64,000 nt of DNA from a virus. The stretch is taken from positions 1 to 64,000 of IMG/VR virus record IMGVR_UViG_3300019458_000005. One strand, given 5' to 3'. Position numbers and translations under genes: made by a program. The notes beneath the pieces are model-generated. The model saw only the letters and a list, made by a program, of their open reading frames with translations, had not been told where the DNA came from and ran no database searches. Below, piece after piece: positions 3,000-30,890 of this stretch (its first letter is position 1; each line of letters opens with the position of its first letter).

Positions 3000-3268
3000 G
3001 CGTACCCTCCCCACGCGCCGTTGTCTCTCGCCCATTCCATCAGTTCTTCGTACGTGAACTCATCGAGTGCGTTGCCGTAGCAGGTCGCGAACGAAACTGG
3101 GTCCAGGTCCCAGGCCTCATCGATGGCCTGGATGTAGGTCTTTCTTTCTGACCTGTCTATGTAGGAGATGTAGGCCGCCACACAAGACAACTCTTGGATG
3201 GTGCGGTCTTTCTGAGGGATGCCTTTTGGTTTGAAGTTTGCGGCCTGGCGGGTAGCCCTCACGGGCAC
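2996..3268 (-). CDS. hypothetical protein (about 88-90 aa)
   Basis: ORF track. GGAGG lies immediately upstream, so the real start may be the second GTG at 3262. The stop overlaps the next start (ATGA). Confidence 0.5.
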   Translation of the reverse strand: MPVRATRQAANFKPKGIPQKDRTIQELSCVAAYISYIDRSERKTYIQAIDEAWDLDPVSFATCYGNALDEFTYEELMEWARDNGAWGGYA

Positions 3269-3357
3269 CTCCCCGTGAAACTATGGCTTGACAGGTTCTG
3301 ATCGGTTGGAATACGCTCTGGCACGTCAGCACCTCCGATGCTGGCGCCTTTGATCGA

Positions 3358-3382
3358 GGGCCACCGAGTTCAGGCGGTGGCC
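3358..3382. terminator. GC-rich hairpin downstream of the HTH gene
   Basis: GGGCCACCG-agttcag-CGGTGGCCC: 9-bp perfect stem, about 50 nt after the stop at 3432. No clear U-tract. Confidence 0.4.
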
Positions 3383-3431
3383 CTCAACCTGTACGCGCAG
3401 AACCATCGTTACCTGCTGGACCCACCGTTCG

Positions 3432-3746
3432 TCAACAGGCTTCGTTGGCTAGCTTCGCAAGTCCAGTAGCCAGCGTCGCGAGCGCTTCCTGGTGGATCAG
3501 ATTCGGGACGCTTCGTCCGTGGAACCAGTTCAGCACGGACGCGTCCGTGACGCCCAGCGCTCGAGCCACCGCGGCCGCTGAAGTCTGCCCCACCAGCCGC
3601 CACACGAGCTCCCTGGAGGCTCGCGTCCAGCGCTTCCGGTGACGCTTGGGCCGCGAGCAGCTGCGTGAGCATGCGAGTTGGGTCAGCTCCCAGGGCCGGA
3701 GTATGACCCCGCATGAGCACACGATCTCGCGCTTGAGCCGGGCCAT
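3432..3746 (-). CDS. helix-turn-helix DNA-binding protein (104 aa)
   Basis: Internal ATG of the 256-aa ORF at 3746 (MARLKREIVCSCG...) overlaps the DUF1643 stop (TGATG). HTH-like segment TSAAAVARALGVTDASVLNWFHGRS. The longer N-terminal extension is Arg/Gly/Pro junk overlapping the DUF1643 gene. Confidence 0.6.
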   Translation of the reverse strand: MARLKREIVCSCGVILRPWELTQLACSRSCSRPKRHRKRWTRASRELVWRLVGQTSAAAVARALGVTDASVLNWFHGRSVPNLIHQEALATLATGLAKLANEAC

Positions 3747-4735
3747 CAGTCCGGGTCCATGCCGCCTTCGTCGGCCGCTCGAGCCTCGTCGTCCTCGTCC
3801 GAACAGCCACGGCAGCCGCGGAACAGCGCTCCGGCCGTCTCCTTGACGTGGATGGCCGCCACCCGCTTCTCGTTGGTCTTCTTGTCCTTGCTTCCCCAGC
3901 AGCGCTCCCCCGGGGGCGGGTCGAGCTCGAGCGAGCGGCTCGAGCGAGTGAGCCGGATCTGGCTCTTGCCGACCTTCTTCAGGGTCACGACCTCGACTAC
4001 GTGACCGGCGCGGCCGTCGGCCCAGAGGCCTGAGACCCACTCCACCCGGACCTGCGCCCAGGGGTGCCAGGCCGCGTTGTTTCCGCCGTCGTTGAACTTG
4101 GTCCAGGCCAGGTCGCCGACCTCCCACACGTCCGGGCGCGGACGCTGCTCGGTGGGCTGCTTGGCCGGCCGCTCGGGAAACAGGTCCTTGGTCTGTTCCC
4201 AAAGGACCTCGGCGTTGGTCTTGGGCTTGGGCGGAGCTTTCCTGGGCTCGTACGGCTCCGGATTGGTGTCCTTGGCCAGATAGAGCGGGTGCTTGGGCGT
4301 GCCGTCCTTGTTGCGGCCCAAGCAGCGTACCCGAGCTCCAGCCTCCTCGAGGATCTTCTCGACCTGGTCTGAGCGGTTACGAACGGTAGCGATCGTGCCC
4401 CATGCCGCGAGGACGGCACGGCCTGCGCAGGCCTCGCGGAGGACCCGGTCGTTCTCAGGTCCGATGGCTCGCTCGAGCAGGTCGCACTTGAGCAGCTGGA
4501 GGAGCTCCTTGGGGTCGGTAGCCCGGTAAGCGAATGCGTTGACCTTGAGCAGTCCGCCGTAGCCCCACAGCTGCGCGAAGCCGATCTCGCGGGTCACGGT
4601 AGGGTCGTTTTTCTTCTCGTCGGCCGTGCTGGGATTCAGGCCGATCACCACCAGGACCGGCTTGCTCTCGTCCCAGATGCGCGTGAGCGAGTAGCGCCAG
4701 ATCCTACAGGGAGAAAACATCGCGTTGGAATACAC
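3746..4735 (-). CDS. DUF1643 domain protein with ~150-aa C-terminal extension
   Basis: RYSLTRIWDE..LVVIGLNPSTAD..DPTVTREIGFA..GYGGLLKVNAFAYRATDP..AAWG..GTPKHPLYL matches the DUF1643 signature as I remember it. GTG start directly follows the SNF2 stop. Confidence 0.8.
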   Translation of the reverse strand: MYSNAMFSPCRIWRYSLTRIWDESKPVLVVIGLNPSTADEKKNDPTVTREIGFAQLWGYGGLLKVNAFAYRATDPKELLQLLKCDLLERAIGPENDRVLREACAGRAVLAAWGTIATVRNRSDQVEKILEEAGARVRCLGRNKDGTPKHPLYLAKDTNPEPYEPRKAPPKPKTNAEVLWEQTKDLFPERPAKQPTEQRPRPDVWEVGDLAWTKFNDGGNNAAWHPWAQVRVEWVSGLWADGRAGHVVEVVTLKKVGKSQIRLTRSSRSLELDPPPGERCWGSKDKKTNEKRVAAIHVKETAGALFRGCRGCSDEDDEARAADEGGMDPD

Positions 4736-6484
4736 CTACCCCACCTCACCGTCAACCGCCGCGATCAGGCCGACCTTCTCGAGGTTGACCTCCTCGACGC
4801 GTTCGTCCAGCGCGTGGTCCGCGAACAGGTCGATGATCGTGACGTCCTGCAGCTGCCCGAACCGGTAGATGCGGTTCTCGCTCTGCTTGTTGACCCCAGG
4901 CGTCCACTCGCGGTCGACGCGGATCGCGTAGCGAGCGCGGTGGAGCGTGATCCCGACCCCGCCTGAATCGATGGTCAAGGCGATCCCGAGCAAGTCGCCG
5001 GCCTGGAAGCGGTCGATCGCCTTCTGTCGGGCCGCGTCCGAGGTCTTGCCCTGGATCGTGGCCCAGCGCCGCCGAGATCCCAGGATGTCGACCGGGGCGC
5101 GGTGGGCTGAGAACACGACCACGGGTTCCCCGTGCTCCTCGTAGCGCTCGACCAGCTCGAGGAGGCCGGGGATCTTGGCGGTGGCTAGGGCCTTTCGGAC
5201 CTCCATCAGCACGCGCTGGCCGGGCGAGAGCTTCTTCCACTTCAAGGCCAGGTCGATCGCCTTGCGAGCCTCGGCCGGGCTGGGCTCCTTGAGCTCCGAG
5301 AAGATGTGCTCCGCGTGGGCCTCGAGGTGCTCGTAGCGCTTGGCGCGCTGGTCCTCGTTGAGGCTTTTCTCCTCGGGGTTCTTGATCAGGCCGGACCGCA
5401 CGGCCTCCCAGGCCTTGGCGTGAGCCACGAGCTTCTTCGTAGCCAGCGTGAGCTGGCTGGCGTCCTCCTTGGTGATCTCGACCTCGACCTGCTGGTAGCG
5501 CTTCTCGGGCAGGTCCGGGATCACGTCCTGCAGGCGACGGATGCGGATCGCGGTTGGTCCTGGGTCCGGTCCTACATGTCCGATGCGGTCGAAGAGCTGC
5601 TTCAGCTTCGAGCCGGACGGCGGAGCTCTCTCGTCGCGCTCCTTCAGGTTGTACCAGTCCTCGAACATGGCGTCGAACTCGGCCCAGCCGGTCTGTGGGA
5701 AGGCTGCGAAGCCCAGGAGCGCGTTCTGCCACACCGACCACAGCTCCATGGGGTTGTTCTCCCATGGAGTGGCGGTCGAGAGCCACACGTAGCCGCCGGT
5801 CTCGAGGACCACGTCGCGGAGAACCCGGATCGCCTGACAGGTCTTCTTGTCCGGATTCTTGGCCTTTTGCGCCTCGTCGAGCACGAGCACGATCGGGCCC
5901 TTGGGTTTCACGATGCGCGTGAGGCCACGGATCCAGTCGTAGGTGCGGTAGGTCGCGAAGTTAGGCCCTCCTGGCGTCCACTTGTCGCGGTCGAGATCGA
6001 GCGTGAGCAGCTCCGGCCTCCACTCGCGGACCTCTTTCTGCCAGTTCCTCGTGAGTGACTTGGTGGCCACGAGGCACAGCCCGAAGCCTTCGGGGATTGC
6101 ACGCAGAAGCTGCGGCGTCTTGCCCACTCCGGTGGCGTCCTGAATGAGCGCGATTCGGCGCGAGGCCAGGAAACGCACCCCGTCCCGCTGGTAGTCGTAG
6201 AGCGTGCGCTTCGTGCCGTCGAGCACGCCTGAGCTGGGCCGCGTAGCGCGGTCCTCGACGTTGCCAGGGTTGACGCCCTTGAGCATGAAGCAGCGCCCGC
6301 ACACGTATTCGTGTCCGCTGGGGAGCTTGAGGGTCATGTCGGCCGGGATGCGCAGCCCGCAGGCCTCGCAGTCCCAGGTCTTCGTCCACTCGGGGAAGTC
6401 GACCAGCAAGCGGCTGCGGATTACGCCCTTCTTGCGGCGGGTGGCACGCGGCCCGGTCTCGTCGCCGACGATCTCGATGGCCAC
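4736..6484 (-). CDS. SNF2/DEAD-like helicase with N-terminal zinc ribbon
   Basis: YDYQRDGVRFL, DATGVGKT (Walker A), LVLDEAQKAKN (DEAQ box), and a C-terminal helicase lobe (VVFSAHRAP, QSENRIYRFGQ). CEACG..CGRC ribbon. Start set at GTG 6484, which overlaps the TAG of the upstream ORF. Confidence 0.85.
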   Translation of the reverse strand: MAIEIVGDETGPRATRRKKGVIRSRLLVDFPEWTKTWDCEACGLRIPADMTLKLPSGHEYVCGRCFMLKGVNPGNVEDRATRPSSGVLDGTKRTLYDYQRDGVRFLASRRIALIQDATGVGKTPQLLRAIPEGFGLCLVATKSLTRNWQKEVREWRPELLTLDLDRDKWTPGGPNFATYRTYDWIRGLTRIVKPKGPIVLVLDEAQKAKNPDKKTCQAIRVLRDVVLETGGYVWLSTATPWENNPMELWSVWQNALLGFAAFPQTGWAEFDAMFEDWYNLKERDERAPPSGSKLKQLFDRIGHVGPDPGPTAIRIRRLQDVIPDLPEKRYQQVEVEITKEDASQLTLATKKLVAHAKAWEAVRSGLIKNPEEKSLNEDQRAKRYEHLEAHAEHIFSELKEPSPAEARKAIDLALKWKKLSPGQRVLMEVRKALATAKIPGLLELVERYEEHGEPVVVFSAHRAPVDILGSRRRWATIQGKTSDAARQKAIDRFQAGDLLGIALTIDSGGVGITLHRARYAIRVDREWTPGVNKQSENRIYRFGQLQDVTIIDLFADHALDERVEEVNLEKVGLIAAVDGEVG

Positions 6485-6753
6485 TACTGACTCGCCGGAC
6501 GCCAGGTGAGCGGTTCGCGGCGCAAGAGGTCGATCAGTTCCCCGTACCCGAATCCGCCCCTTTGAGCGAGGCTCTCTGCGCTCTGGCTGCGGCTGCGGCC
6601 ATAGGCGGAGACGTAGTTGCCCCAGGCCTCGAGGTGCTCGGCCCACGAGACCGTGCCTAGGCCGCGCTTCAGGTGTCGGTCTTCCTGCACTGGAGCGCGT
6701 CGACCGCAGGTACAGGAAGCACAGTGCGGAGCGGCAGGGTCTGGTTCGGTCAT
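6484..6753 (-). CDS. hypothetical protein (89 aa)
   Basis: ATG 6753 (MTEPDPAAPHCASCTCG...) with AAGGAGGAG 8 nt upstream. The stop overlaps the SNF2 GTG. Confidence 0.55.
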   Translation of the reverse strand: MTEPDPAAPHCASCTCGRRAPVQEDRHLKRGLGTVSWAEHLEAWGNYVSAYGRSRSQSAESLAQRGGFGYGELIDLLRREPLTWRPASQ

Positions 6754-6881
6754 CAGTCCCGCTCCTCCTTGGTGTCGTGGAACAGGAGGATGACCTCCTC
6801 GCGCGGGTAGTTCTCGAGCGCCCAGCCCGCACACCAGGCCGACGTTACGCCACCCGAGAAGCCGACGATGACTCGCCTCAC
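6753..6881 (-). pseudogene. 42-codon ORF carrying only a PP-loop N-terminus (possible remnant of a PAPS-reductase / ATP-pyrophosphatase-like gene)
   Basis: VRRVIVGFSGGVTSAWCAGWALENYPREEVILLFHDTKEERD*. Contains an SGGxxS P-loop plus a DT..E motif, then a stop. GTGA overlap upstream and TGATG overlap downstream. Too short for the ORF track. Confidence 0.35.
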
Positions 6882-7099
6882 TTCTTCGCCTTCTTCTTGC
6901 GCTTCTCGCCGCCGCAGGCCTTCTCGACCATCCTCTTCGACAACTCCACCACCTCAGCATCGCACGGGCTGGAAGCGTCGATCTTGCCTGAGCTGTCGTA
7001 CCAGCTCAGGAGGCCGTGCCTCGAGCTGATGACCTGGAGCGTGAAGTCCTGTGCGTGTCCGGCCACGATGCGGATGAGGATCGTCTCGCCCGGCTTCAC
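6878..7099 (-). CDS. hypothetical protein (73 aa) with Lys-rich tail
   Basis: GTG 7099 forms a GTGA overlap with the DUF3310 gene stop. Ends GGEKRKKKAKK. Confidence 0.5.
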   Translation of the reverse strand: MKPGETILIRIVAGHAQDFTLQVISSRHGLLSWYDSSGKIDASSPCDAEVVELSKRMVEKACGGEKRKKKAKK

Positions 7100-7557
7100 G
7101 GCTTGGCCGTCTCCTTGGCCTCGAGCTCCGCGATCTCGCGCTGGAGGTACCACGCGGCCTTGCGCAGGTCGTCGAGCGTCGACTCGCCCGGCTTGAGGCC
7201 GGCGCGGCAGATGTACTTCAGCGCGGAGCCCAGGCAGAAGCCTAACTTCCAAGCCACGATGACCTTGATCGCTTCGTAGGGGTTGTCGGCTCCTCCGTAG
7301 TGGGCCGGATGGTCTACCTTTTCTGCTGTGTCACGCTTCTCGATGAACGACAGCAACTGAGCATGAATCAGCTCAGCGGGTTTGCGTTTCAGGCACTCCT
7401 GGCAGGTGACCGCTTCCCACACTTGAGTGAGGCTTTCTGCCAGAGAGGACCCGCAGATTGTGATGGGATAAGACGGAATCCCTATCTGCGGGATCTGGTG
7501 ATTTAGTTCCGGGTGCTGGTAGTGAGTTCCGGCTCCAGGTCCAGAGTATTGTGTCAC
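7096..7557 (-). CDS. DUF3310 domain protein
   Basis: HPAHYGGADNPYEAIKVI..LGSALKYICRAGLK..DLRKAAWYLQREI matches the DUF3310 signature from memory. GTG 7557 forms a GTGA overlap with the upstream stop. Confidence 0.75.
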   Translation of the reverse strand: MTQYSGPGAGTHYQHPELNHQIPQIGIPSYPITICGSSLAESLTQVWEAVTCQECLKRKPAELIHAQLLSFIEKRDTAEKVDHPAHYGGADNPYEAIKVIVAWKLGFCLGSALKYICRAGLKPGESTLDDLRKAAWYLQREIAELEAKETAKP

Positions 7558-8198
7558 GCGCCCTCCTCGACCTGATCCCAGATCCACAGCTCACGCGAGA
7601 GGCTCTTGCCGGACCGGTCGATCTTGACTGACCACCGGGTCAGCTCGCGCCACTCGCGGACTGATCCGGTCTCCTTGTTCTTCTTCTGATGTTTGTTCCA
7701 GCTCCACACCTCGAGCCGGTTGCCGCACCTGAGCCAGGCCATTACCTCCGAGTCCTGGAGCTCGAGCAGCTGGTCGATCTTTTTCCGCCGGGCCGCGGAG
7801 TCGCTTGAGCTGCTGGTCGCCTGGATGCCCAGCACACCCGCGTATCCCGGACAGATCTGGTTGCCGATCTGAACCGACTTGAGATTCGAGTCGTCGTCCT
7901 GCAGCACCACCAGGTCGATGCACCCGAACAGATCGATGGTCGTCTGGTCGCGCCAGTTGCCGTGAGCTTGTCGTCCTCCGAAGTGGATCCGGCGCTCGAC
8001 GATCCCGGCGTGCCAGCCGCGCTTCTTACACTCCGCGAGCGCGGCCTTGGTCGCCGAGAACTTGGTCTTTCGCGCCGGCTTGGCCGCCTTCTCGTGCGGG
8101 GCGTCGGTGTCGCTATGGAGGTAGAGCCCGGCGCACTGAGACTCGTGGTCTGTGCGCAGGCCTGCCGCAACCCCGCAGTTGCAGGCTGCGAGCTTCAC
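7554..8198 (-). CDS. hypothetical protein; possible PD-(D/E)xK-type nuclease/resolvase
   Basis: GW..GIVERR..TIDLFGCIDLVVL..LGIQATS resembles the E..D..D/E.K-like core of Hjc/VRR-NUC-type nucleases. The match is weak. GTGA-coupled start. Confidence 0.35.
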   Translation of the reverse strand: MKLAACNCGVAAGLRTDHESQCAGLYLHSDTDAPHEKAAKPARKTKFSATKAALAECKKRGWHAGIVERRIHFGGRQAHGNWRDQTTIDLFGCIDLVVLQDDDSNLKSVQIGNQICPGYAGVLGIQATSSSSDSAARRKKIDQLLELQDSEVMAWLRCGNRLEVWSWNKHQKKNKETGSVREWRELTRWSVKIDRSGKSLSRELWIWDQVEEGA

Positions 8199-8425
8199 TG
8201 GGTTGGTCTTTCGAGCTCGGACTCTATCGTGAGGGCGCAGGCCAACGCCTCGATGATCTGCGGGTCGTTTGCCTTATTCTTGCCCAGACGGATGCGCTCG
8301 TCGACCCAGTGGCGGATGGTCGACGGCGCAGCCGCGTCCCGGCCCAGGAGCACGAACAGCATCTCGTCCTCGCGGGCGCGGTTGAGGCAGCTGGTCGGAT
8401 AGGTTACTTCGTCGGTTTTGCGCAT
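8195..8425 (-). CDS. hypothetical protein (76 aa)
   Basis: ORF track. GGAG 7 nt upstream of ATG 8425. Confidence 0.55.
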   Translation of the reverse strand: MRKTDEVTYPTSCLNRAREDEMLFVLLGRDAAAPSTIRHWVDERIRLGKNKANDPQIIEALACALTIESELERPTQ

Positions 8426-16247: not shown

Positions 16248-16493
16248 TTATGCGCGGCGCTCGATGTGTCCGCCTGGATCTTGCTGAATCGGTTGACCGT
16301 CAGCGAACCACGCGCGCTTGCATGTCCGACAGTCGCACAGGCACACGAGCGGTAGCTTGGCGTTCATGTTCGCAAGCGCAGGGCCTACTGCGCTGCTGTC
16401 TCTGTGCTCGAGCACGACTCCGCAGTCCATGTGGACGTATGCTCCGGGCGTGATGTCTCCCCAGAACGGACACCAGGTGTCTGGGTCGCTCAC
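16248..16493 (-). CDS. Cys-rich hypothetical protein (81 aa)
   Basis: GTG 16493 forms a GTGA overlap with the methyltransferase stop (VSDPDTWCPFWG..CLCDCRTC). Confidence 0.5.
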   Translation of the reverse strand: MSDPDTWCPFWGDITPGAYVHMDCGVVLEHRDSSAVGPALANMNAKLPLVCLCDCRTCKRAWFADGQPIQQDPGGHIERRA

Positions 16494-18175
16494 GCCCGCA
16501 TCCTTCTGAACTCCGGCCGGAGCATGTCCGCGTCGTGCGTCGCGCACATGGCCGGGTCTCCGCCCAGCTTCACGCAGCCGCAGCCCACGTAGCGCTCGCG
16601 CTTGTCCTGCTCCGCGAACAGCTGGTGAACGAGCGCGGTGGCCGTACGCACCGCGACTGCGTTTCCGATCTGCCGGGTTACCTCGGTCTTGTTGCCGGCG
16701 AACTCGTAGGTGGTCTCGTCGTCCGAGAACCCCATCGCCTTGGCCAGCTCGTGGGGTTGGAGCATCCGGAACAGGATGTCCCACTGTGCCTCGAGGTCGC
16801 CCTCGACGAGAGGCACGCGGCCCTGTGCGCAGATCGCCGGGACGGGCTGGCTGAGGTCATGAGTCCTGGGCGTCTGGCCTGGCCGTTCGCCGAAGGCCGC
16901 GATCGCGAAGGCCAGCTCGCCCCGGTTCGCGCCCGTGATCATGTGGAGTGGCTCGTGGCTCGAGCGGACGCGCCGGCCGTCCTTGTCGGTGTGAGTCACC
17001 GGAACCACGAGCGAGAGGCGGTCTTTGGCCGTGATCGTTGCCACCGGCTCGTCGGCGGTCCGGTTGCCGCCGTTCCCGTAGTAGGTCGAGACCAGCGCGT
17101 GCGCCCCGCGGCCTGGGATCGTGGGCATGGGGTTGGTGGTGGGTCGCGCGCGTCCGCCCTGGCCCTGAGCCAGGATCACCGGCTCGGTCACGCCCATGCC
17201 GTTGCTCGTGGTGATGGTCGCGAGCGGGGACACGGCCGGGTCGCGCACGCACATCGCGTTCGAGAGGTGCATATCGGTCCTGGCGATGAGCGGGATCCCG
17301 GCCATCCCGTCCGGCTTCAGCCCGCGCCCCTTGAAGTCCTTCAGGATCGCCGTGTAGGCCTCGCCCGTGATGTAGCGCTCGAGCAACTCCACGAACGGTG
17401 CCGGCCAGCCGAACTTGACCGCTCCGGCGAGGATCCTGGCCAGCGTCTTGGTCGAGAGCCGCTTCTCCTTGCCCTTCTTGGTGACGCCGCGCCGGAAGAT
17501 CGAGTTGCCCTTGAGCGACCAGTCGATCACTTCGCGCGCAGCTCGCCAGCGGGGGAGGCCGCTGCCTCCGTCCTGGTCGTGCGAGGCCAGGGGCCAGGTG
17601 ACGAGCTCCCCGTCGCTGCGCCCGACCAGGAAGAACCGCTCACGGGTGGTCGCGTCGCCGTAGTCGGCGGCGTTGAGCACGCGGTACTCGAGCTGGAACC
17701 CGAGCCCTTCGATGGCGCGGACCCAGGCCTTGAAATACTCCCCGCGCCGGCTCTTGAGCGCCTTGCCAGTCTTCGGGTCCACCGGGCCCCACTGCTGAAA
17801 CTCGGGCACGTTCTCGACGATCAGCGATTTTACCCGCAGCTCGGTGAGCCAGTTGATGATCACCCAGGGACTCATGCGCTGCTGATCAGAGGTCGGCTTG
17901 CCTCCACGAGCCCGAGAGAAGTGGATGCAGCTGGGCGAGGCCATAAGCAGGTCGAGCTTGCCGGACGGGACGAGCTCGGACGGACGGGCATGCTCTAGGT
18001 CCACGCAGAAGTGCTGGGCATCCGGATGCATCTTCGAGTGCGTCTTGATCGCGGTCGGCCAGTGATTGACCGCGATCAGCTTCATCCGGATGCCCAGCCG
18101 CTCGAGCGCGCGGCGGGTTCCCGTGCTCGAGCCGCCGGCCCCACAGAATAGATCAGCCACAGTCACAGTGCGCAT
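16490..18175 (-). CDS. DNA (cytosine-5) methyltransferase
   Basis: Motif I DLFCGAGGSS, catalytic SPSCIHFS (PC motif variant), ENVPEF (motif VI), QIGNAVAV (motif X), and a long variable region. Confidence 0.85.
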   Translation of the reverse strand: MRTVTVADLFCGAGGSSTGTRRALERLGIRMKLIAVNHWPTAIKTHSKMHPDAQHFCVDLEHARPSELVPSGKLDLLMASPSCIHFSRARGGKPTSDQQRMSPWVIINWLTELRVKSLIVENVPEFQQWGPVDPKTGKALKSRRGEYFKAWVRAIEGLGFQLEYRVLNAADYGDATTRERFFLVGRSDGELVTWPLASHDQDGGSGLPRWRAAREVIDWSLKGNSIFRRGVTKKGKEKRLSTKTLARILAGAVKFGWPAPFVELLERYITGEAYTAILKDFKGRGLKPDGMAGIPLIARTDMHLSNAMCVRDPAVSPLATITTSNGMGVTEPVILAQGQGGRARPTTNPMPTIPGRGAHALVSTYYGNGGNRTADEPVATITAKDRLSLVVPVTHTDKDGRRVRSSHEPLHMITGANRGELAFAIAAFGERPGQTPRTHDLSQPVPAICAQGRVPLVEGDLEAQWDILFRMLQPHELAKAMGFSDDETTYEFAGNKTEVTRQIGNAVAVRTATALVHQLFAEQDKRERYVGCGCVKLGGDPAMCATHDADMLRPEFRRMRA

Positions 18176-18224: not shown

Positions 18225-18240
18225 GCAAACAGTTTTTCAG
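18225..18240 (-). promoter_or_regulatory. promoter-like box CTGAAAAACT-N3-TGC (copy 2)
   Basis: Minus-strand CTGAAAAACTGTTTGC, about 50-60 nt upstream of the methyltransferase ATG at 18175 and directly downstream of the repeat array. Confidence 0.45.
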
Positions 18241-18292
18241 GAGAACCTCACCAGCCGCGTCATCCTGGCAGGACCTCGCCACGTCTTGAGTT

Positions 18293-19576
18293 GCCTGCCC
18301 GTCCACGTCAAGCCTGATCTCGCCCAACCTTACCTTGCCAGCCCCGCCATCCACACCCTGCCTCGTCACGCCATCCGATCAGGTCCATGCCTGCCCCGCC
18401 CGGTACTGACCGGACGTGCCCGTCCAAGCCCTGCCTGCCGTGTCATGCCCTCGCTGTCCCGCCTATCGAGCCCCGCCTGCCATGCCGGAACGCTCACCAC
18501 CTGGTCGCGCATTTACAAGCCGTGCTTGCTTGCCGCGTCACGTCGGGCCGCCAGCGCCTCAAACTTGCCACTCCATCCCCGCCTGCCGAGCCGGGCCCCG
18601 CTTGTCCAGGACGGACCCATCCCCGCCTTGCCTGCCGTGTCATGCAGCGCCTATCCGAGCCTCGACGAACCGGTCCTGCCATGCCCTACCATCCGCCAGC
18701 TCCGGGCGTTGACGGTCCTGGCCTGCCTGTTCCTGCCTGTCCGTGCCCATCCCCGTCTTGCCTGCCGTGCCACCTGATGCCCACCCATGCCTCGCCACGC
18801 CGGCCGTGCGCAGAGTTCCGGTCCCTGTCACTCCCTGGATCGTCGGCCGTGACGTACCACTCGATGCCCAACCACTTCCAGCCCCGCCGGCCATGCCACT
18901 TCTGGCCTGTCCGTAAGCGCCGAAGGAGGCCTGCCCAGCCTGGCCGGTCGCGGCCCCGCCTTCGCAAGCCTGCCGTGATCTCTTCCGCGAGCTCCGCCCT
19001 GTCTCACGCCCCGTCCGGCCCGTCCATGAACTGCCTGCCGTGTCCTGACAGTCCCGGCCCTGTCTGGCCTTCCTAGCCTGCCGTGTCTCACCCAACCGTG
19101 TTCGGCCGTCTACGTCTTGCCTGTCCGAGCCTGCCCCGCCTCTCCGTTGCCTGTCCTACCTATCCCAGCCTGCCATGCCTCTCGATTGCTTGCCTTGCCT
19201 CGCCCTTCACGCCTGCCAGACCTCGTCACTTCGGTCCGGTCCCAAACACTCCATGCCTGCCGCTACATACCTGTCCCGACCCTGTCGCACCAAGCCTGCC
19301 GTTCAGCTCCGCCCACGTCGTCCATGCCCCGTCGTGCCTGCCGAGCCTTGCCGGTCCGAGATCGTGACTGTCGTGCCTTGCAATGACGAGCCGGGCCTGC
19401 CTGTCCAGGCCATGTCATGCCCAACCTTGCGATGTCTAGCCTGCCCAGCCATTCCCTGCCGTTCCTGGTTGGTCCGCGAGCGCCTTGCCTGCCGACCCAC
19501 GTTGGTCCATTCCACTTCCAGACTGGCCTTGCCTGCCTTTCCGTGGCCATCCCGACCTGGCACGGCCACGCCTGCC
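18293..19576 (+). repeat. non-coding array of 23 same-orientation GCCTGCC(GTG) boxes, mostly 39-49 bp apart
   Basis: Exact heptamers start at 18293, 18389, 18433, 18475, 18581, 18630, 18721, 18760, 18929, 18968, 19033, 19076, 19129, 19168, 19211, 19255, 19294, 19336, 19395, 19439, 19487, 19531 and 19570. The spacers are unrelated. The plus strand is C/T-rich. No frame is open across the region. Confidence 0.85.
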
Positions 19577-19668
19577 GTGTCTCGTTCTGTTCTGCCTGGC
19601 CAAGACAGGCCGTGTTCTAGAGCCAGCTCGAGGACCTCGAGCGATCCCCGAGCTGGCTCGTGAAGTCT

Positions 19669-20496
19669 CTACCCGAGGATCTCGAACAATCCCCAGCCCT
19701 GGCCGCCCGAAGGGCTGTCAGGTCGGCCCTCGCCCACCCCGACCTGCATGCCGGCGCGGAGGAGGAGGTTCGCCACGTCCTCGGTCGAGAAGATGTCCGC
19801 GTCGTGGCGGACCTTCACCGTGGCCTCCCAGCCCGGCTCCCAGAACGGCCGGACGCGGATGTCGGTCGACGACATCTGCAGCCGCACGAGCGTCTCGAAG
19901 CGCGCGGGCGTGCCTTTGGTGATCCGGATCAGCCCAGACTTGTCGTGCGGGTCGGCCGACCAGCCGTCCGGCAGGACGAACAGGCCCAGCCGAGCCACGG
20001 TCATCTTGAAGTCGACCATCCGGCAGCTCGAGACCATCGCCTTGTAAAACGCGACCGCCGGGATGCCGTGCCAGCCGTTTACGCTGCGGTGCATGGCCGC
20101 TTCGTAGGCCGCGTTGAAGTCCTTGGGTTCCTTTACGCGGCCCTTCTTCTTGGCGAGCGAGCCGGCCTCCTGCGCGGCCTTCATCATGTTCAGCGCCTTC
20201 TCCGAGAACTTGTTCTGGACGTAGGGCGCGGTCCCGCGGATCTGGAACTGCGCGATCTGGAGGTTCGGCCGCGGGATGCGCACGTTCTTGGTGCTCTCCT
20301 GCGCCTTCTTGAGGTCCTTGGCGCTCTTCGGGTCCTGGAGGTGCGACCCGAGCTCCATGTCGTCGACCCCGGTGCCATCGTCGTCCAGCTCCTCGGTGGG
20401 CTTGACCTTGGGTGGACGCCCGCGCCTCTTCTTGGGCGGGTCCTCGACCGCCGTGGCTGTGGGACCGTTGCCGTTGCCGTTCTTCAGCCTGTTCAT
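19669..20496 (-). CDS. hypothetical protein with N-terminal AT-hook-like basic segment
   Basis: ORF track. KKRRGRPPKVKP near the N-terminus. ATGA-coupled to the upstream gene. Confidence 0.6.
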   Translation of the reverse strand: MNRLKNGNGNGPTATAVEDPPKKRRGRPPKVKPTEELDDDGTGVDDMELGSHLQDPKSAKDLKKAQESTKNVRIPRPNLQIAQFQIRGTAPYVQNKFSEKALNMMKAAQEAGSLAKKKGRVKEPKDFNAAYEAAMHRSVNGWHGIPAVAFYKAMVSSCRMVDFKMTVARLGLFVLPDGWSADPHDKSGLIRITKGTPARFETLVRLQMSSTDIRVRPFWEPGWEATVKVRHDADIFSTEDVANLLLRAGMQVGVGEGRPDSPSGGQGWGLFEILG

Positions 20497-20975
20497 CGCT
20501 TGCTCCTCTGCTTCTGCTTCTTCGTCACTGCTGCGTTGGCCGCAACGGTCATCGCGTCGAACACCAACGCGAGCTCGCTGAGGCGTGCGTACTTGTTCTG
20601 AAAGGCGCGCATCTCGCGCTGGGCGTCCGCCAGCAGGATCGCGCGCAGTTGTTCGTCGGACATTACCTCGGCCGTGGCCCGGTATCCGCCGCCCCCGGTG
20701 ATCTGGCCCTTCACGCCCTGTGGCCGGTCCTCCGAGAGACTTACGTAGGCGCGCACCTCCTGGTCCGTGCCCGGGATCAGCGTGACCGTGACCCGTATCA
20801 GCTGTCTCGCCTCCTCGAGGCGGTGCCTCCTGGCAGCCTCCGTGTCGTCCCAGGTGAACAGCTCGTGGAGCGGGCTCCTAGGCGACTGCGCGGCCCTGAC
20901 TACCTCCTCAGGGATGAGGAGCTCCTCTGGGTGGAGGTGACGGATGCGCTCGAGCTCAGCGTGGACGGCGTTCAT
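20493..20975 (-). CDS. hypothetical protein (160 aa)
   Basis: ORF track. GAGG 7 nt upstream of ATG 20975. Lys/Arg tail. Confidence 0.6.
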   Translation of the reverse strand: MNAVHAELERIRHLHPEELLIPEEVVRAAQSPRSPLHELFTWDDTEAARRHRLEEARQLIRVTVTLIPGTDQEVRAYVSLSEDRPQGVKGQITGGGGYRATAEVMSDEQLRAILLADAQREMRAFQNKYARLSELALVFDAMTVAANAAVTKKQKQRSKR

Positions 20976-21823: not shown

Positions 21824-22423
21824 CTAGGCCTTCACGCGCAAGAACAGCCGCTGGAGGCGCAGGACCTCCGACCACAGGTCAAACAGCGCGCGGTGGACCT
21901 CGGCCTTGGGCGGCATCTGCTCGCGCTGCTCCTTGGCCATGAGCAGGTCAAGGCCAGTGACATCGAAGTGGCGATGCGAAAACCGGTACGCGCACTTGAT
22001 CCCGCCGCGCTCCTCGATCCAGCGCCGATCGAAGCGGGCCACGTTGCGCCCAGCCAGGATCACGTCGCCAGTCCTGCCCATCGTCTCTTTCCAGTGCCGT
22101 TCGAGCAGTGGCTCGATGAGCCCGTCCAGGTTGTCCCAGGGGGATCCCAGACACTCTTCCATGAGGCCGGAGCGCTCGTGCGAACTGGCCACGCTAGGGC
22201 TTTCCTTGTGGAACTCGTCCCAGCGGACCCTGGCCACCTTGAGGATCCGCGAGGCCTGGTCGACCACGTTGAGCTGCTGATCGGTGACCAGGAAGGCCGC
22301 CTCGAGGAGCATGTCGGCCGACGGGTCCAGGCCAGAGGTCTCCACGTCGCACCAGAGTAGTTTGGGCGGACACACAGCCATCGACAGGTGCAGGGGGGCA
22401 GCTTCGATCTTCTCGTTGATCAT
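21824..22423 (-). CDS. oligoribonuclease-like DEDDh 3'-5' exonuclease
   Basis: LWCDVETSGLDPSADMLLEAAFLVTD, LAGRNVARFDRRWI, SHRHFDVTGL and VHRALFD align by eye with E. coli Orn ([54 protein letters not shown]). ATG 22423 forms an ATGA overlap. Confidence 0.75.
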   Translation of the reverse strand: MINEKIEAAPLHLSMAVCPPKLLWCDVETSGLDPSADMLLEAAFLVTDQQLNVVDQASRILKVARVRWDEFHKESPSVASSHERSGLMEECLGSPWDNLDGLIEPLLERHWKETMGRTGDVILAGRNVARFDRRWIEERGGIKCAYRFSHRHFDVTGLDLLMAKEQREQMPPKAEVHRALFDLWSEVLRLQRLFLRVKA

Positions 22424-22824
22424 AGGCACTTCTCCAGGTTTTTGATCAGTGGTCCGATTCCGCCGCAGCTGTCGGCGTGGATCTCGTTGCTCAGGCGTCC
22501 GCACTTCGGACAGCGCTGCTTGATTAGGCCGATGATCTGTCTGAGATCGCTGGAGGAGACGATCACGCCGCGATGCTTGAGGCGGGAGTGGCGTTGCGCG
22601 CGGTCGAGCGCCAGCTGCGCCAAGCCGACCGGGATGTTCACGACCAAGCTGCCCTTGGTAGCGGTGGCCATCACGCTCTGGCTGCGCGGCTCGGTAGCGA
22701 TGACCAGGTTCCACTCGAGTGCTTTGGCTCTCCACATCACGATCTCGCCGTCGGTCTGCTCGGCGAGCGTCCAGTCGTCGGCGGCCACGATGGCGTCGAT
22801 CAGGGAAGCAACGACTGGGCTCAC
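22420..22824 (-). CDS. hypothetical protein (134 aa) with C-terminal CxxC..C motif
   Basis: GTG 22824 with GAGG 7 nt upstream. Forms a GTGA overlap with the preceding micro-ORF. Confidence 0.5.
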   Translation of the reverse strand: MSPVVASLIDAIVAADDWTLAEQTDGEIVMWRAKALEWNLVIATEPRSQSVMATATKGSLVVNIPVGLAQLALDRAQRHSRLKHRGVIVSSSDLRQIIGLIKQRCPKCGRLSNEIHADSCGGIGPLIKNLEKCL

Positions 22825-23332: not shown

Positions 23333-23748
23333 GCGTCTCCCTGCTCCAGTTCTCCGTTCAGAAGCGTGCGGATCTCTACTTCAGCGACCTTGGCGCGGCG
23401 CGCTTCCTCGTTGCGGTCGATTACGTCCCCGCAGCGCTCGCACACGTCGTGGACGTAGGTCTTCTGGGGCTCGAGTCTGTCGACCATGAACTTGAACCAG
23501 TGGTCGCGGTGACTCGTGATGTAGAGCTTGGTCTGCCCGCTCGGGTGAATTTCCGTGGTAGCCATGGCCTCGGCCTGCCTGTTGACGGTCTGCAGTTGCT
23601 CGAGCGTGAGCTTGGCCTCGTCGTAGCGCGGCCGGTAGCGGTGCCGGCACGTTCTGGGGTCTGGAGCCCTCAAGAGCCCGCGCGCCCACCAACCCAGCGT
23701 GTAAGCGAACACGAGCATGGCGCCCACGCAGACCATGATCCCGATCAC
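23329..23748 (-). CDS. membrane-anchored hypothetical protein (139 aa)
   Basis: N-terminal hydrophobic helix IGIMVCVGAMLVFAYTLGWW. GTGA-coupled start. Confidence 0.55.
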   Translation of the reverse strand: MIGIMVCVGAMLVFAYTLGWWARGLLRAPDPRTCRHRYRPRYDEAKLTLEQLQTVNRQAEAMATTEIHPSGQTKLYITSHRDHWFKFMVDRLEPQKTYVHDVCERCGDVIDRNEEARRAKVAEVEIRTLLNGELEQGDA

Positions 23749-24593
23749 TGAGCGCTCCTCTTTGGTGGCCTCTGCCCGAGCTCCCGCAGCGCTCGCCTGG
23801 CTCGCTTGCTCCGGGCGAACGACCAGGCGTACTTGTGGTTGCCGGGGTGGGCCTGAGGCCTGGTGACGGTGGCCAGCGCGAGCCGCAGCCAGGCCGCGCG
23901 GTCCTGGCCCGCCTCGAGCTGAGGAGCTCCCCAGCTGACCAGGCGCTCGTAGGGCTCCCTGCTCGAGCGCTCGTCCGCGCGGACCTTGCTCATGGATCGG
24001 CGGTCGAAGCTGGTCCCGTCAGGGAGGAGACGCAGCGTGTTCCGTGCCCCACGGCCCAGGTAGATGCCGTTGTGGGCCTGGTAGATCCCGCCTGTGTGGC
24101 CCGGGAACACCACCGACCCGTCGGCGCGCTTGCGCGGTTGGTCGTCAGAGAACGAGACCACGCCGTTGTATCCTTCTTTGCGCAGGACCTCGAAGCAGCG
24201 GGCCAGGAACCAGGTCTCGGCGTTCTTCTCGAGCTCGTCCAGGAGCACGAACCGTCCGAGCTCGAGCGAGTCGGCGGCCTGTCCGCCGAACACGTTGGTC
24301 ACGGTCTTCGGGTTCGTGCCCGGCCCGAACACGGCCACACCCGCAAGCAGCCCGTCGCGCAAGATCGCGAACCGGCGCGACGCCGCACAGTAGCTGCCGC
24401 TGTAGTGGTGCTGCTGGACGAACTTCTTGGCGGTCGTGTTGTCGAACAGCTCGGCGACCTCGTGCCTAGCCGGGTCGAAGTAGACCTCGTCCTCGGGGCG
24501 GAAGCTGCTGTCCTTGTCGAGCCAGCGCTGGGTCACTTGGGCGCTTCTTTCTTGGCCTTCTGTGATCGGTGTGCTTGCGATCTTCTTCTTCAT
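23745..24593 (-). CDS. Mom-like GNAT-fold acyltransferase (candidate DNA base-modification enzyme)
   Basis: QQHHYSGS..LAGVAVFGPGTNP..LELGRFVLLD..NAETWFLARC..VVSFSDD..GHTGGIYQAHNGIYLG matches the pattern I remember for the Mom (adenine methylcarbamoylation) family. Confidence 0.5.
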   Translation of the reverse strand: MKKKIASTPITEGQERSAQVTQRWLDKDSSFRPEDEVYFDPARHEVAELFDNTTAKKFVQQHHYSGSYCAASRRFAILRDGLLAGVAVFGPGTNPKTVTNVFGGQAADSLELGRFVLLDELEKNAETWFLARCFEVLRKEGYNGVVSFSDDQPRKRADGSVVFPGHTGGIYQAHNGIYLGRGARNTLRLLPDGTSFDRRSMSKVRADERSSREPYERLVSWGAPQLEAGQDRAAWLRLALATVTRPQAHPGNHKYAWSFARSKRARRALRELGQRPPKRSAQ

Positions 24594-29086: not shown

Positions 29087-29253
29087 GCTGCCGCATCAAG
29101 GACTGGGTTCGCCAAGAGCTCGACGAACCCACTGAGCTCGAGTGCCCTGAGAAGCCCGACGAGTCGGTAGACGGCCACGAGCTCTGCAAGACCCACGCGT
29201 TCGCGGTCCGCGCCTTCGCCCGGAGCTGGGAGCCTGCTACGCTGCCGGCATGA
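29083..29253 (+). CDS. hypothetical protein (56 aa)
   Basis: GTG 29083 forms a GTGA overlap. The stop overlaps the next ATG (ATGA). Confidence 0.4.
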   Translation: MSCRIKDWVRQELDEPTELECPEKPDESVDGHELCKTHAFAVRAFARSWEPATLPA

Positions 29254-30890
29254 CCCAGCCTCGCCCAGTCGTCGCAGCGGCCATGCGTTCGATCTACGCG
29301 CCTCCAGCCACAGCTCACAGCATGGGAGACTTCTTTGACCCGCCGCTCGAGGGGTTGCCCTCGCACCGCCGCAAGGGCGGAGGCGAGGCCGCGCCAGGGT
29401 TCGACTACCGCTGGATCGGCGACAAGGACGTCGGCACCGCCGCCACGATCGACGTGATGAAGAAACTGGCGGTCGACGGGAGCACGCACCCAGGGATCAT
29501 CGCGGCCGCGCAGCGAGTCACGCGTCGCCTCCCTAGCAAGGACTACGAGGCCGAGCTGCGCGCGCTGTTCGAGCTCGTGCGGGAGAACGTGCGCTACAAC
29601 CTCGACCCGCGCGCGATGGAGATGGTCCAACATCCGGCTTACACGATGTTCGTGAGCGGAGTCGGGGACTGCTTCGTGGCCGGGACGCAGGTCCTGCTCA
29701 AGGACGGATACCGCACGATCCCGATCGAGGAGGTGCGAGCTGGGGATCAGATCTGGGGAAAGGACCGCTGGTCTCGCGTCGAGAGGTCCTGGTCCAAGGG
29801 ACGCCTGAGGACCTGGCTCGTTCGGCTGAACAACGGGTCGACCATGCGCCTGACTCCAGACCACAAGGTCTACGTGCTCGATCCTGATTCCGGAGAGGAG
29901 TCGAGGATCACGCTTCGTGAGCTCAGGCCTGGCATGCTGCTCACTCAGCCGGAATCTGTGGCTACCGGGACCGGCGAACAGGACCCGGACATGGCCTACC
30001 TGGACGGGGTCTACCTGTCGGATGGATGGGCCGAGCAGAGCCGGTTCGCGATCTCAGGCAAGGACGGGCACCCGAAAGAGGAACAGAAGCGTAGGGTGCA
30101 GGGGATCTGCTCCCACCGTGGGATCCGTACCAGGTGGGCCAAGAAGTACATCTCGATCCTAGATCGTGATCTCGCCCAGCGCATGCTGAGTATGGGCAGT
30201 AGGGCCTTCAACAAGAAGGCGCTCACAATTGACCTCGAACCGCTCGCCTCCACGCAGCTCCTGTCCGGGATCATGGCCGACTCTGGGCGGAACACTTCCA
30301 GAAAGGAGGCTGAGCTACTAGCTTCGGATCAAAACCTCACAGGCAGGACGTTCACGACCACGTCCTACGCTTTGGCTCTCCAGGTGAGAATTCTCCTCAA
30401 ACAGCAGGGAATCAGCTGCGGAGAGAGCTACGTGCCTGACCATGGAGGCGAGGGTACGCATCCGATCTGGCGACTCCAAACGAGACTTCGTGAGCATGAG
30501 ACCAAAACGCATGTCAAGCGGCTCAAGGTGGTCGAGATCATTCGCGACAACGACCCGCGCGAGTGTTTCGACATCTCCACGGACGACCACTACGTGTGGT
30601 TGCCGCAGGCCGACTGGACGGTCTCGAACTGCGACGATAGCGCGGTCCTCCTGGCCGCCCTCTCGATGGCCGCCGGACACGGCGCGCTCTACCGCACGAT
30701 CCGCACCGACCCGCGTCGCATGGACGAGTTCAGTCACGTCTACCCGCTCCTGGGCTACCGCAACAAGGACGGCGCGTTCTGGTTCTCAAGCGACGTAACC
30801 CACCCGCGCCCCGAAGACGCGCGCTGGGGCTGGGAGGCCCCGCAGGAGGTCCGCTACGGCACGGCCGACTGGATGGTCGCGGGGGTCTAG
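29250..30890 (+). CDS. transglutaminase-like cysteine protease interrupted by an intein
   Basis: The extein reads ..YTMFVSGVGD|CDDSAVLLAALSMAAGHG..FSHVYP..FWFSSDVTHP (Cys-His-Asp transglutaminase-core pattern) once residues 141-460 are removed. Confidence 0.7.
   Translation: MTQPRPVVAAAMRSIYAPPATAHSMGDFFDPPLEGLPSHRRKGGGEAAPGFDYRWIGDKDVGTAATIDVMKKLAVDGSTHPGIIAAAQRVTRRLPSKDYEAELRALFELVRENVRYNLDPRAMEMVQHPAYTMFVSGVGDCFVAGTQVLLKDGYRTIPIEEVRAGDQIWGKDRWSRVERSWSKGRLRTWLVRLNNGSTMRLTPDHKVYVLDPDSGEESRITLRELRPGMLLTQPESVATGTGEQDPDMAYLDGVYLSDGWAEQSRFAISGKDGHPKEEQKRRVQGICSHRGIRTRWAKKYISILDRDLAQRMLSMGSRAFNKKALTIDLEPLASTQLLSGIMADSGRNTSRKEAELLASDQNLTGRTFTTTSYALALQVRILLKQQGISCGESYVPDHGGEGTHPIWRLQTRLREHETKTHVKRLKVVEIIRDNDPRECFDISTDDHYVWLPQADWTVSNCDDSAVLLAALSMAAGHGALYRTIRTDPRRMDEFSHVYPLLGYRNKDGAFWFSSDVTHPRPEDARWGWEAPQEVRYGTADWMVAGV
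29670..30629 (+). mobile_element. intein (320 aa) with LAGLIDADG homing-endonuclease domain
   Basis: Starts CFVAGTQVLLKDG. Block B is LTPDHKV. LAGLIDADG-like motifs YLDGVYLSDGW and LLSGIMADSG. Ends DHYVWLPQADWTVSN followed by the +1 Cys. The central part has lower G+C. Confidence 0.75.

Follow-up and report, generated by a model that had tools for sequence, protein, structure and literature searches.

A run of pentamer repeats beside a RAMP-fold protein gene in phage DNA is probably the guide-RNA array of a VIPR system

Introduction

In the present study, we analysed a stretch of 64,000 nucleotides of phage DNA (positions 1 to 64,000 of the IMG/VR record IMGVR_UViG_3300019458_000005, hereafter the window), and in particular a non-coding region of 1.3 kb in which the heptamer GCCTGCC recurs on one strand. 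We propose, at a probability of about 85%, that this region is the guide-RNA (vrRNA) array of a phage Viral Interference Programmable Repeat (VIPR) system, and that the 275-aa protein encoded beside it is the Vipr partner. The locus is very probably an unannotated addition to a kind of system that is already published.

VIPR systems are CRISPR-like systems of RNA-guided DNA binding, mostly phage-encoded, which were first described in 2026 (bioRxiv 10.64898/2026.04.26.720920, 10.64898/2026.04.26.720927). They combine a small protein, Vipr, which has the RAMP fold with its RRM core, glycine-rich loop and thumb, with non-coding vrRNAs that flank its gene and, in most cases, a single accessory gene (vap), and seven types have been named (10.64898/2026.04.26.720920, 10.64898/2026.04.26.720927). 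The vrRNAs are built of YNNGG pentamer repeats with a conserved GGY and a hypervariable NN; one Vipr protomer occupies each repeat and sequesters GGY, and the NN dinucleotides pair with double-stranded DNA, every third target base being skipped (10.64898/2026.04.26.720920, 10.64898/2026.04.26.720927). In the complex, a beta-sheet His and D177 of the G-loop contact G1, R138 and W178 contact G2, and R179 is part of the pocket for Y3; the Vipr filament represses the transcription of competing phages, satellites or prophages (10.64898/2026.04.26.720920, 10.64898/2026.04.26.720927). Consecutive vrRNAs abut with a 1-nt overlap in the so-called staggered arrays (10.64898/2026.04.26.720920, 10.64898/2026.04.26.720927), and experimental confirmation is reported for the ribozyme-interspersed and the single-vrRNA systems only (10.64898/2026.04.26.720920).

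Results

The main parts of the locus are as follows.

18240..19610, minus strand: predicted VIPR vrRNA array, about 1.37 kb of pentamers in a 5-nt register with 23 GGC-A-GGC junctions
18293..19576, minus strand: span of the 23 exact GGCAGGC junction boxes
19669..20496, minus strand: predicted vipr gene, 275-aa product, phrog_4652, directly upstream of the array
20493..20975, minus strand: candidate vipr-accessory gene (vap), 160-aa product, phrog_15946, overlapping the vipr start by 4 nt
19615..19664, minus strand: hairpin with a 17-bp stem (inverted repeat), between the vipr stop codon and the array

The first-pass annotation of this DNA, which was made from the letters alone, had counted 23 exact GCCTGCC heptamers on the plus strand between 18293 and 19576, and all of them were found where it placed them. 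They start at 18293, 18389, 18433, 18475, 18581, 18630, 18721, 18760, 18929, 18968, 19033, 19076, 19129, 19168, 19211, 19255, 19294, 19336, 19395, 19439, 19487, 19531 and 19570. From the composition of the region itself 0.55 copies (mononucleotide) or 1.2 copies (first-order Markov) would be expected, and the window holds 38 copies in total on both strands, 15 of them outside the array in about 62.7 kb. The extended cores that it had described are also present, namely seven copies of GCCTGCCGTG, TGCCTGCCGTGTCATGC at 18432 and 18629, CATCCCCGYCTTGCCTGCCGTG at 18618 and 18748, and GCCTGCCGTGTCTC at 19076 and 19570. Its remark on the strand bias of the region was likewise correct, as the plus strand has 43% C and 24% G, with a GC skew of about -0.2 that is distinct from the flanks; the GC content is about 0.67 throughout. 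A second, independently assembled copy of this phage (locus L029, from Logan SRR7811943) matches the array base for base, which rules out an assembly artefact.

Read in the direction of the adjacent genes (minus strand), the box is GGCAGGC, and a lattice of five nucleotides follows it. At offsets 9, 14, 19, 24 and 29 after the box start a G stands in 83-87% of the 23 units, and the base two positions after each of these offsets is almost never G. Autocorrelation of GG with GG gave peaks at lags 5, 10, 15 and 20 (98, 83, 83 and 75 pairs, vs 10-20 off-phase), followed by later peaks at lags 24, 29, 34, 39 and 44, and the register therefore slips by -1 once per unit. The box is GGC-A-GGC, a 4-nt step that breaks the pentamer register every 7-8 pentamers. 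For this reason the boxes are spaced by 39-44 bp (39 = 4 + 7x5; 44 = 4 + 8x5), and the phasing at about 43 bp or four helical turns, on which the first-pass annotation had laid weight, turned out to be a by-product of a true period of 5 nt. The box spacings of 39, 44, 49 and 59 nt are all of the form 5k+4. The composition of the repeat was taken from 76 non-box pentamers in 11 inter-box units of 5k+4 length.

Pentamer position 1: G.88; 1.29 bits
Pentamer position 2: G.68; 0.64 bits
Pentamer position 3: C.54, A.32, T.12, G.03; 0.49 bits
Pentamer positions 4 and 5: near uniform; 0.05 bits each

The consensus on the minus strand is G-G-H-N-N, and positions 18240 to 19610 hold the only pentamer array of such kind in the window. 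Longer direct repeats within it are fragments of 60-90% identity, the 7-nt box being the only recurrent element.

The protein encoded directly upstream belongs to phrog_4652, a family of unknown function. Searches with the single protein against Pfam, NCBIfam, PADLOC and the PDB gave no match, and only a profile of the family reached a Vipr structure. At E ≤ 1e-3 this family has at least 1482 proteins, none of which is named or carries a Pfam domain. A profile of 34 members matched a single solved structure, PDB 36pp (36pp_D), 'SUSP1 Vipr protein', at E 1.2e-4. The match covers the conserved C-terminal W...W...GVGEGRP, in which the G-loops are aligned (GVGEGRP with GVGDWRP). With hhalign, comparison with the identical SUSP1-type Vipr of Shigella phage vB_SflM_004 (Felixounavirus) gave E 2.9e-5 and a probability of 73.5% over 58 columns. 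The G-loop lies at residues 253-259 of the 275-aa protein, GxGEGRP is invariant in 33 homologues, and two of the contact residues of SUSP1 Vipr have counterparts in it (D177 = E256, R179 = R258).

The AlphaFold2 model of the protein has a mean predicted local distance difference test (pLDDT) score of 78; in the core, most blocks of 10 residues exceed 90, and confidence is low for residues 1-70. When this model was compared with the PDB by Foldseek, 59 matches were obtained at E ≤ 1e-3, and all of the 50 matches listed are CRISPR RAMPs, either type III Csm/Cmr subunits or type VII Cas7. The protein thus models as a RAMP fold (Cas7/Csm3-like) that stands outside any CRISPR-cas locus. The extension of 60-70 residues at the N-terminus is probably disordered and holds the segment KKRRGRPPK; most homologues are 205-250 aa long. 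The suggestion that this protein is a candidate partner of the boxes has gained support from the RAMP fold and the Vipr profile match.

The 160-aa gene that overlaps the vipr start is the second conserved partner. At 21 of the 25 loci described below (17 of 20 distinct) its homologue adjoins that of vipr, in either order, and its counterparts include g33 of Cyanophage Cy-LDV1 and gp44 of Gordonia phage Pipp. The AlphaFold2 model of the product has a pLDDT of 91.5 and a long C-terminal helix, and the fold matches are only weak winged-helix-like ones, all at E > 0.5. No homology was detected between this protein and the SUSP1-type vap. The vipr and vap reading frames are both undamaged, and their 4-nt overlap is what would be expected of genes translated together.

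The 275-aa protein has relatives at 23 IMG/VR loci, in Cy-LDV1 and in several Gordonia phages including Pipp; 24 related phage loci, Cy-LDV1 and Pipp among them, carry a homologue. Pentamer arrays were inspected at 25 loci (the 23 IMG/VR loci, Cy-LDV1 and Pipp; L numbers are used for single loci). Nearly all of them have a G-skewed (GGY-NN)n stretch on the strand of the vipr homologue, usually just downstream of it, and at L021 and L022 also upstream; at L021 there are only small clusters of pentamer words. These stretches are dense in GGCNNGG(C) words, which the opposite strand has almost none of. Their repeats are denser than those of the window, and most of the arrays carry the same GGCAGGC junctions. 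The counts are 217 GGC in 1665 nt for L001, 81 GGC in 420 nt for L003 (GGC-to-GGC gaps: 5, x67; 4, x8; 10, x5) and roughly one GGC every 5 nt for L013, L017 and L019. The gaps between GGCAGGC copies in relatives are 39, 44, 49, 54, 59, 64, 69 and 74 nt, all of them 5k+4, and the single base in the 4-nt steps GGY-N-GGY is A in 134 of 156. Across 129 junction contexts GG(C/T) is about 70-95% conserved and the next two positions are near uniform. The first-pass annotation had proposed to compare the conservation of boxes and spacers among relatives; the junction box does recur in them, and it is the NN positions that are near uniform.

Individual relatives add further detail. In the closest, L027, whose protein is 73% identical, the array comprises about 9 units; it keeps the box and the semi-degenerate style of the window and has other variable bases. 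Between L011 and L012 (about 6000-8260) the flanks are 100% identical and only the VIPR module differs; identity in vipr is 89-98% per 100-nt block, and the arrays differ by indels of 5, 5, 10 and 44 nt, the last being one whole 5k+4 unit. This pattern suggests, from sequence comparison, that guides may be gained or lost rapidly. The mismatch in the aligned arrays, 8% in NN vs 5.9% in GGY, is weakly discriminating. Cy-LDV1 (L024) has two short arrays, 6673-6860 and 7421-7618, which flank the vap-like g33 just after the vipr homologue g34. In Pipp (L025) the array directly follows gp42 and has itself been annotated as a protein, gp43 (4569-4838, 'hypothetical protein'). As a positive control, the SUSP1-type locus L030 showed runs of GGTNN x10-14 with a conserved tail behind every run.

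Some side observations were made at these loci. The Cy-LDV1 module sits in the early-left operon of this lambda-like cyanophage, between the cI-like region and xis/bet/exo. L001, a viral contig of 119 kb, has two tandem vipr paralogues (2594-3220 and 3324-3839, 61% and 39% identical to the window protein), and the array that comes after them (3878-5542, 1.67 kb, 32 GGCAGGC junctions) exceeds that of the window. At L019, positions 7851-8045 hold a repeat of 12-nt period, GCTGCGGCGNGGGATGCGGCGNGG, the apparent product of which is an Ala-rich repeat protein (AAxD/AAxA); the repeat lies about 0.9 kb downstream of the L019 VIPR array and reaches the contig end.

The non-coding status that had been assigned to the window region was borne out, as there is no 3-nt periodicity: the power of the G indicator at period 3 is 0.29 in the array vs 2.1-4.0 in three same-strand coding stretches nearby. 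The accompanying statement that no frame stays open across the region was too strong, since open stretches of up to 252 codons occur on the plus strand, and one gene caller (Logan assembly) reported an ORF of 229 aa at 18387-19076 on that strand. A protein-coding reading was rejected on the lack of periodicity, on box spacings that fall in all three frames and on 8-13 stops per frame of the minus strand. No similar DNA was found by blastn of the array against the phage collection. Rfam gave nothing at gathering thresholds, only chance-level matches at E ≤ 5 and no CRISPR-type RNA. No tRNAs were found, and the promoter and terminator scans gave no usable prediction in DNA of such high GC content.

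Apart from the hairpin that follows vipr, the array region has no inverted repeat. The RNA fold of this hairpin has -48.6 kcal/mol (z = -5.2), and no U-tract terminator was called on the minus strand at 19615-19664; the hairpin may serve in attenuation, in stabilisation or in processing.

When the array is cut at its junctions, the following candidate guide units are obtained, among others.

19538..19576, minus strand: candidate guide unit 1, 39 nt (GGCA + 7 pentamers)
19494..19537, minus strand: candidate guide unit 2, 44 nt (GGCA + 8 pentamers)
19402..19445, minus strand: candidate guide unit 4, 44 nt
19343..19401, minus strand: candidate guide unit 5, 59 nt, 11 pentamers, source of the 22-base target pattern
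19262..19300, minus strand: candidate guide unit 7, 39 nt
19218..19261, minus strand: candidate guide unit 8, 44 nt
19136..19174, minus strand: candidate guide unit 10, 39 nt
18936..18974, minus strand: candidate guide unit 14, 39 nt
18728..18766, minus strand: candidate guide unit 16, 39 nt
18588..18636, minus strand: candidate guide unit 18, 49 nt, 9 pentamers, source of the 18-base target pattern
18396..18439, minus strand: candidate guide unit 21, 44 nt

A segment of 64 nt across one junction, 18616-18679, recurs 130 nt away at 18746-18809 with 72% identity, and units 16 and 18 have their first three NN dinucleotides in common (AA, GG, TG). From this shared start and the 72% repeat it follows that some units arose by duplication.

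Targets were sought by the rule in which one target nucleotide is skipped after each NN pair. The scans of large collections, where few window guides are long enough to stand out, covered exact NN matches only, the preprint having used matches of at least 80% of NN. The 22-base pattern of unit 5 had no exact match in the viral, metagenome and genome collections. The 18-base pattern of unit 18 had one match in the viral collection, which was estimated to be at chance level and in which the skipped base is off the codon wobble position. Guides of 20 bases from L003 and from Pipp had no exact match in the viral collection and in the genome and viral collections, respectively. When 91 guides were compared locally with the window and the collected loci at an NN identity of at least 85%, 20 matches resulted, vs 21 for order-shuffled guides.

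Regarding the genomic setting, the array lies beside a C5 cytosine methylase gene (16490-18175, minus strand). The other genes around it encode a PIF1-like helicase, Rad52-like and Mom-like proteins, ribonucleotide reductase, a helicase, a thymidylate-synthase-like protein, an HNH protein and an exonuclease, and those for the PIF1-like helicase and the Rad52-like protein are downstream of the array. The direction of the genes changes from leftward to rightward at about 25 kb. The leftward block that contains the VIPR module also holds two DNA-modification genes on the minus strand, the Mom-like gene (23745-24593) and the C5 methylase gene. Two genes upstream of vap-vipr is a DEDDh/oligoribonuclease-like exonuclease of 303 aa (21824-22735, minus strand), whose NCBIfam oligoribonuclease match (E 4e-18) is under the cut-off and which is not kept beside vipr across the related loci. 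No cas genes were found in the four neighbouring proteins (PADLOC, NCBIfam), except for a weak match of this exonuclease to the CRISPR-associated DEDDh model of PADLOC at E 1.7e-4. A tblastn search with the 546-aa ORF at 29250-30890 against the phage collection gave nothing.

Discussion

The features by which VIPR systems have been described were found together at this phage locus: a RAMP fold, homology to Vipr (weak and C-terminal), at least 4 pentamers on the vipr strand, a conserved GGY with variable NN, an adjacent vap candidate and the phage context. On this reading, the array would be transcribed leftward from the minus strand, with or just after vap and vipr, as a run of G-G-(C/A/T)-N-N pentamers, each of which would be bound by one Vipr protomer. 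Vipr would hide the GGY triplet and show the two N bases, and the series of NN would act as a gapped guide on double-stranded DNA that skips every third target base. The bound filament may then silence the transcription of a competing phage, satellite or prophage. The GGC-A-GGC step would be the boundary between tail-less guides, either as a processing site or as a break in the filament register, and the locus may encode about 23 short guides with 14-16 (up to 22) specificity bases each.

Among the published systems, the type II VIPR of SUSP1 resembles the window locus in that a phage encodes a small protein of the RAMP fold with its G-loop, that a small accessory gene lies beside it, that GGY-NN arrays flank it on the gene strand and that cas genes and CRISPR repeats are absent; VIPR loci also have in common that they diverge rapidly between near-identical phages. 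The differences are nevertheless clear. Y is C in the window and T in SUSP1, GGY is relaxed to G-G-H, and there are about 23 units vs 4. Compared with SUSP1 Vipr, the 275-aa protein also has its N-terminal 60-70 residues in addition. The window array is contiguous and cut by GGC-A-GGC, without 3' tail, pseudoknot or separate promoters, unlike type II (SUSP1/P. fulva), in which discrete vrRNAs of about 100 nt have 9-16 repeats and an invariant structured 3' tail. We did not file the locus as type II because its units of 7-8 pentamers (maximum 11) share no tail, only GGCAGGC, and it fits the staggered, tail-less architecture.

Several points weigh against the identification of the array as VIPR. 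The similarity to SUSP1 Vipr is modest and limited to about 58 C-terminal residues, and W178 of SUSP1, which stacks on G2, corresponds to Gly257 in the 275-aa family. The array has neither an invariant 3' tail or pseudoknot nor a hammerhead ribozyme, and its units of 7-8 pentamers (up to 11) compare with 9-16 in published VIPR. In addition, no credible target was obtained by the exact scans of viral, metagenome and genome collections, and the VIPR mechanism has been demonstrated only for type II (SUSP1, a phage of E. coli) and in preprints only (10.64898/2026.04.26.720920, 10.64898/2026.04.26.720927). Finally, the repeat itself is loose: strict GGY is found in only 29 of the 76 non-box pentamers, GG-N in 47 and G-N-N in 67, 11 of the 22 inter-box unit lengths are not 5k+4, and four gaps measure 91-169 nt.

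This looseness would also suit a decaying array, in which a canonical (GGY-NN)n ancestor has lost most of its internal repeats by drift and only the junction boxes and some units are functional; the GGC density, about 0.52 per 5 nt in the window vs 0.93-1.0 in L003, L013, L017 and L019, points the same way. We consider such a relic unlikely. All 23 junctions are exact, G1 is kept in 88% of the pentamers, G at position 3 occurs in only 3%, and vap and vipr are intact with their 4-nt overlap, which together argue for ongoing selection. Furthermore, L027 has the same semi-degenerate style, and internal degeneracy is reported to be frequent in working systems, with the relaxed variants NNNGG, YNNNG and NNNNG (10.64898/2026.04.26.720920). 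The relaxed GGY and short units, poor-looking as guides, could instead belong to an RNA decoy, since one transcript with many protein-binding repeats might sequester a rival phage's Vipr or an RNA-binding factor of the host, and some VIPR systems are reported to act against other VIPR systems (10.64898/2026.04.26.720920). However, a vipr gene of its own accompanies every array on the same strand, the NN positions are nearly uninformative (0.05 bits in the window), which is expected of guide positions and not required of a sponge, and the whole-unit indels between near-identical phages resemble guide turnover. A decoy is thus very unlikely in our estimate, and the array RNA is most likely a set of guides. 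The first-pass annotation had mentioned a G-rich, multi-site RNA that titrates a protein; a G-rich, protein-bound RNA and the relevance of the leftward strand were well seen, and the titration is the part that gives way to guides.

The same annotation had favoured roles at the level of DNA, as a partition centromere, an iteron origin or an enhancer-like platform for a promoter, and many boxes of one orientation, roughly regular in spacing, in a non-coding gap beside replication and recombination genes do invite such a reading. The sopC site of the F plasmid and the iteron origins share with the window the many direct repeats, the spacing of about 43 bp and the non-coding stretch. Yet in sopC the entire 43-bp unit is repeated and contains an inverted repeat, and SopB, encoded beside SopA, binds it as double-stranded DNA, whereas in the window only the 7-nt junction is repeated, the true period is 5 nt with 4-nt slips rather than a helical repeat, and the partner has an RNA-binding RAMP fold. 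The motif is strictly strand-specific and lies on the coding strand of the RAMP-fold gene in all loci, and the relatives show a contiguous run of pentamers that is unlike any known centromere or iteron set. As had been noted before, no ParA, ParB or Rep family was matched among the window ORFs scanned (Pfam, PHROGs). A centromere was rejected on this ground, on the strand-specificity and on the post-vipr hairpin being the sole inverted repeat; an iteron origin (17-22 bp iterons, Rep, AT-rich element) was rejected on the missing Rep match, on a GC content of about 0.67 that leaves no AT-rich unwinding stretch, and on the 7-nt core lying on a 5-nt lattice. Cy-LDV1, moreover, has the module in addition to its own lambda-type O/helicase replication genes elsewhere. 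We therefore regard a DNA-level role as highly improbable. A G-rich structural element, whose R-loops or two-tetrad G-quadruplexes would prime replication or stimulate recombination and be resolved by the nearby PIF1 helicase, could draw on the GC skew of +0.2 to +0.3 on the transcribed strand, on GG every 5 nt and on the PIF1-like and Rad52-like genes downstream. Such a structure has no need of a position 3 that avoids G, of the junction A or of 5k+4 lengths, and PIF1, unlike vipr and vap, is not a conserved neighbour in the loci examined; the probability of such an element is close to negligible.

Ideas of Chi-like sites, primase sites and TRAP-like binding were dropped in favour of VIPR after the protein match. 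In the TRAP-trp leader RNA there are 11 (G/U)AG triplets 2-3 nt apart, and one subunit binds each triplet, every ~5 nt. The likeness to the window array is a functional analogy only, an oligomer that reads a triplet every ~5 nt, as the fold is unrelated, the spacers are uninformative, there is no DNA target and the system is cellular. The backbones of class 1 CRISPR-Cas (Cas7, Csm3, Cmr4) are closer, with a RAMP fold, one protomer per fixed length of guide and periodic flipped bases. Their period is 6 nt with one base sequestered, in contrast to 5 nt, three sequestered bases and non-contiguous guide information in VIPR, and the locus lacks repeat-spacer units, Cas1/Cas2, Cas6-type repeat hairpins and other cas genes. 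A CRISPR-Cas array was ruled out by the lack of identical 24-48-nt repeats and of cas genes in the four neighbouring ORFs.

For the VIPR reading, a more specific form can tentatively be drawn, which we regard as possible but short of even odds. The clade would be a tail-less kind of VIPR, in which one transcript is cut into 20-30 guides solely by GGC-A-GGC, the repeat is relaxed to G-G-H, guides hold 7-8 protomers (14-16 specificity bases), and the basic, AT-hook-like N-terminus of Vipr could make up for such short guides by adding non-specific affinity for DNA.

Conclusion

RNA-guided DNA recognition of the VIPR class was reported only very recently and has been proposed to predate CRISPR, and the window locus illustrates that its arrays can be flagged by reading the sequence alone. 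For the clade considered here, the present analysis adds the GGC-A-GGC junction at 5k+4 spacing, arrays of 23-33 units, indels of whole units and a conserved 160-aa accessory gene that is unrelated to the SUSP1-type vap. It also draws attention to a problem of annotation, in which VIPR arrays are called as protein genes, for example gp43 of Pipp and the 229-aa wrong-strand ORF in the window phage. The clade includes the isolated phages Cy-LDV1 and Gordonia phage Pipp, which are usable experimentally, and Cy-LDV1 could serve as a model. If the junction is the delimiter of the units, these phages would possess a compact way of coding many guides in one transcript.

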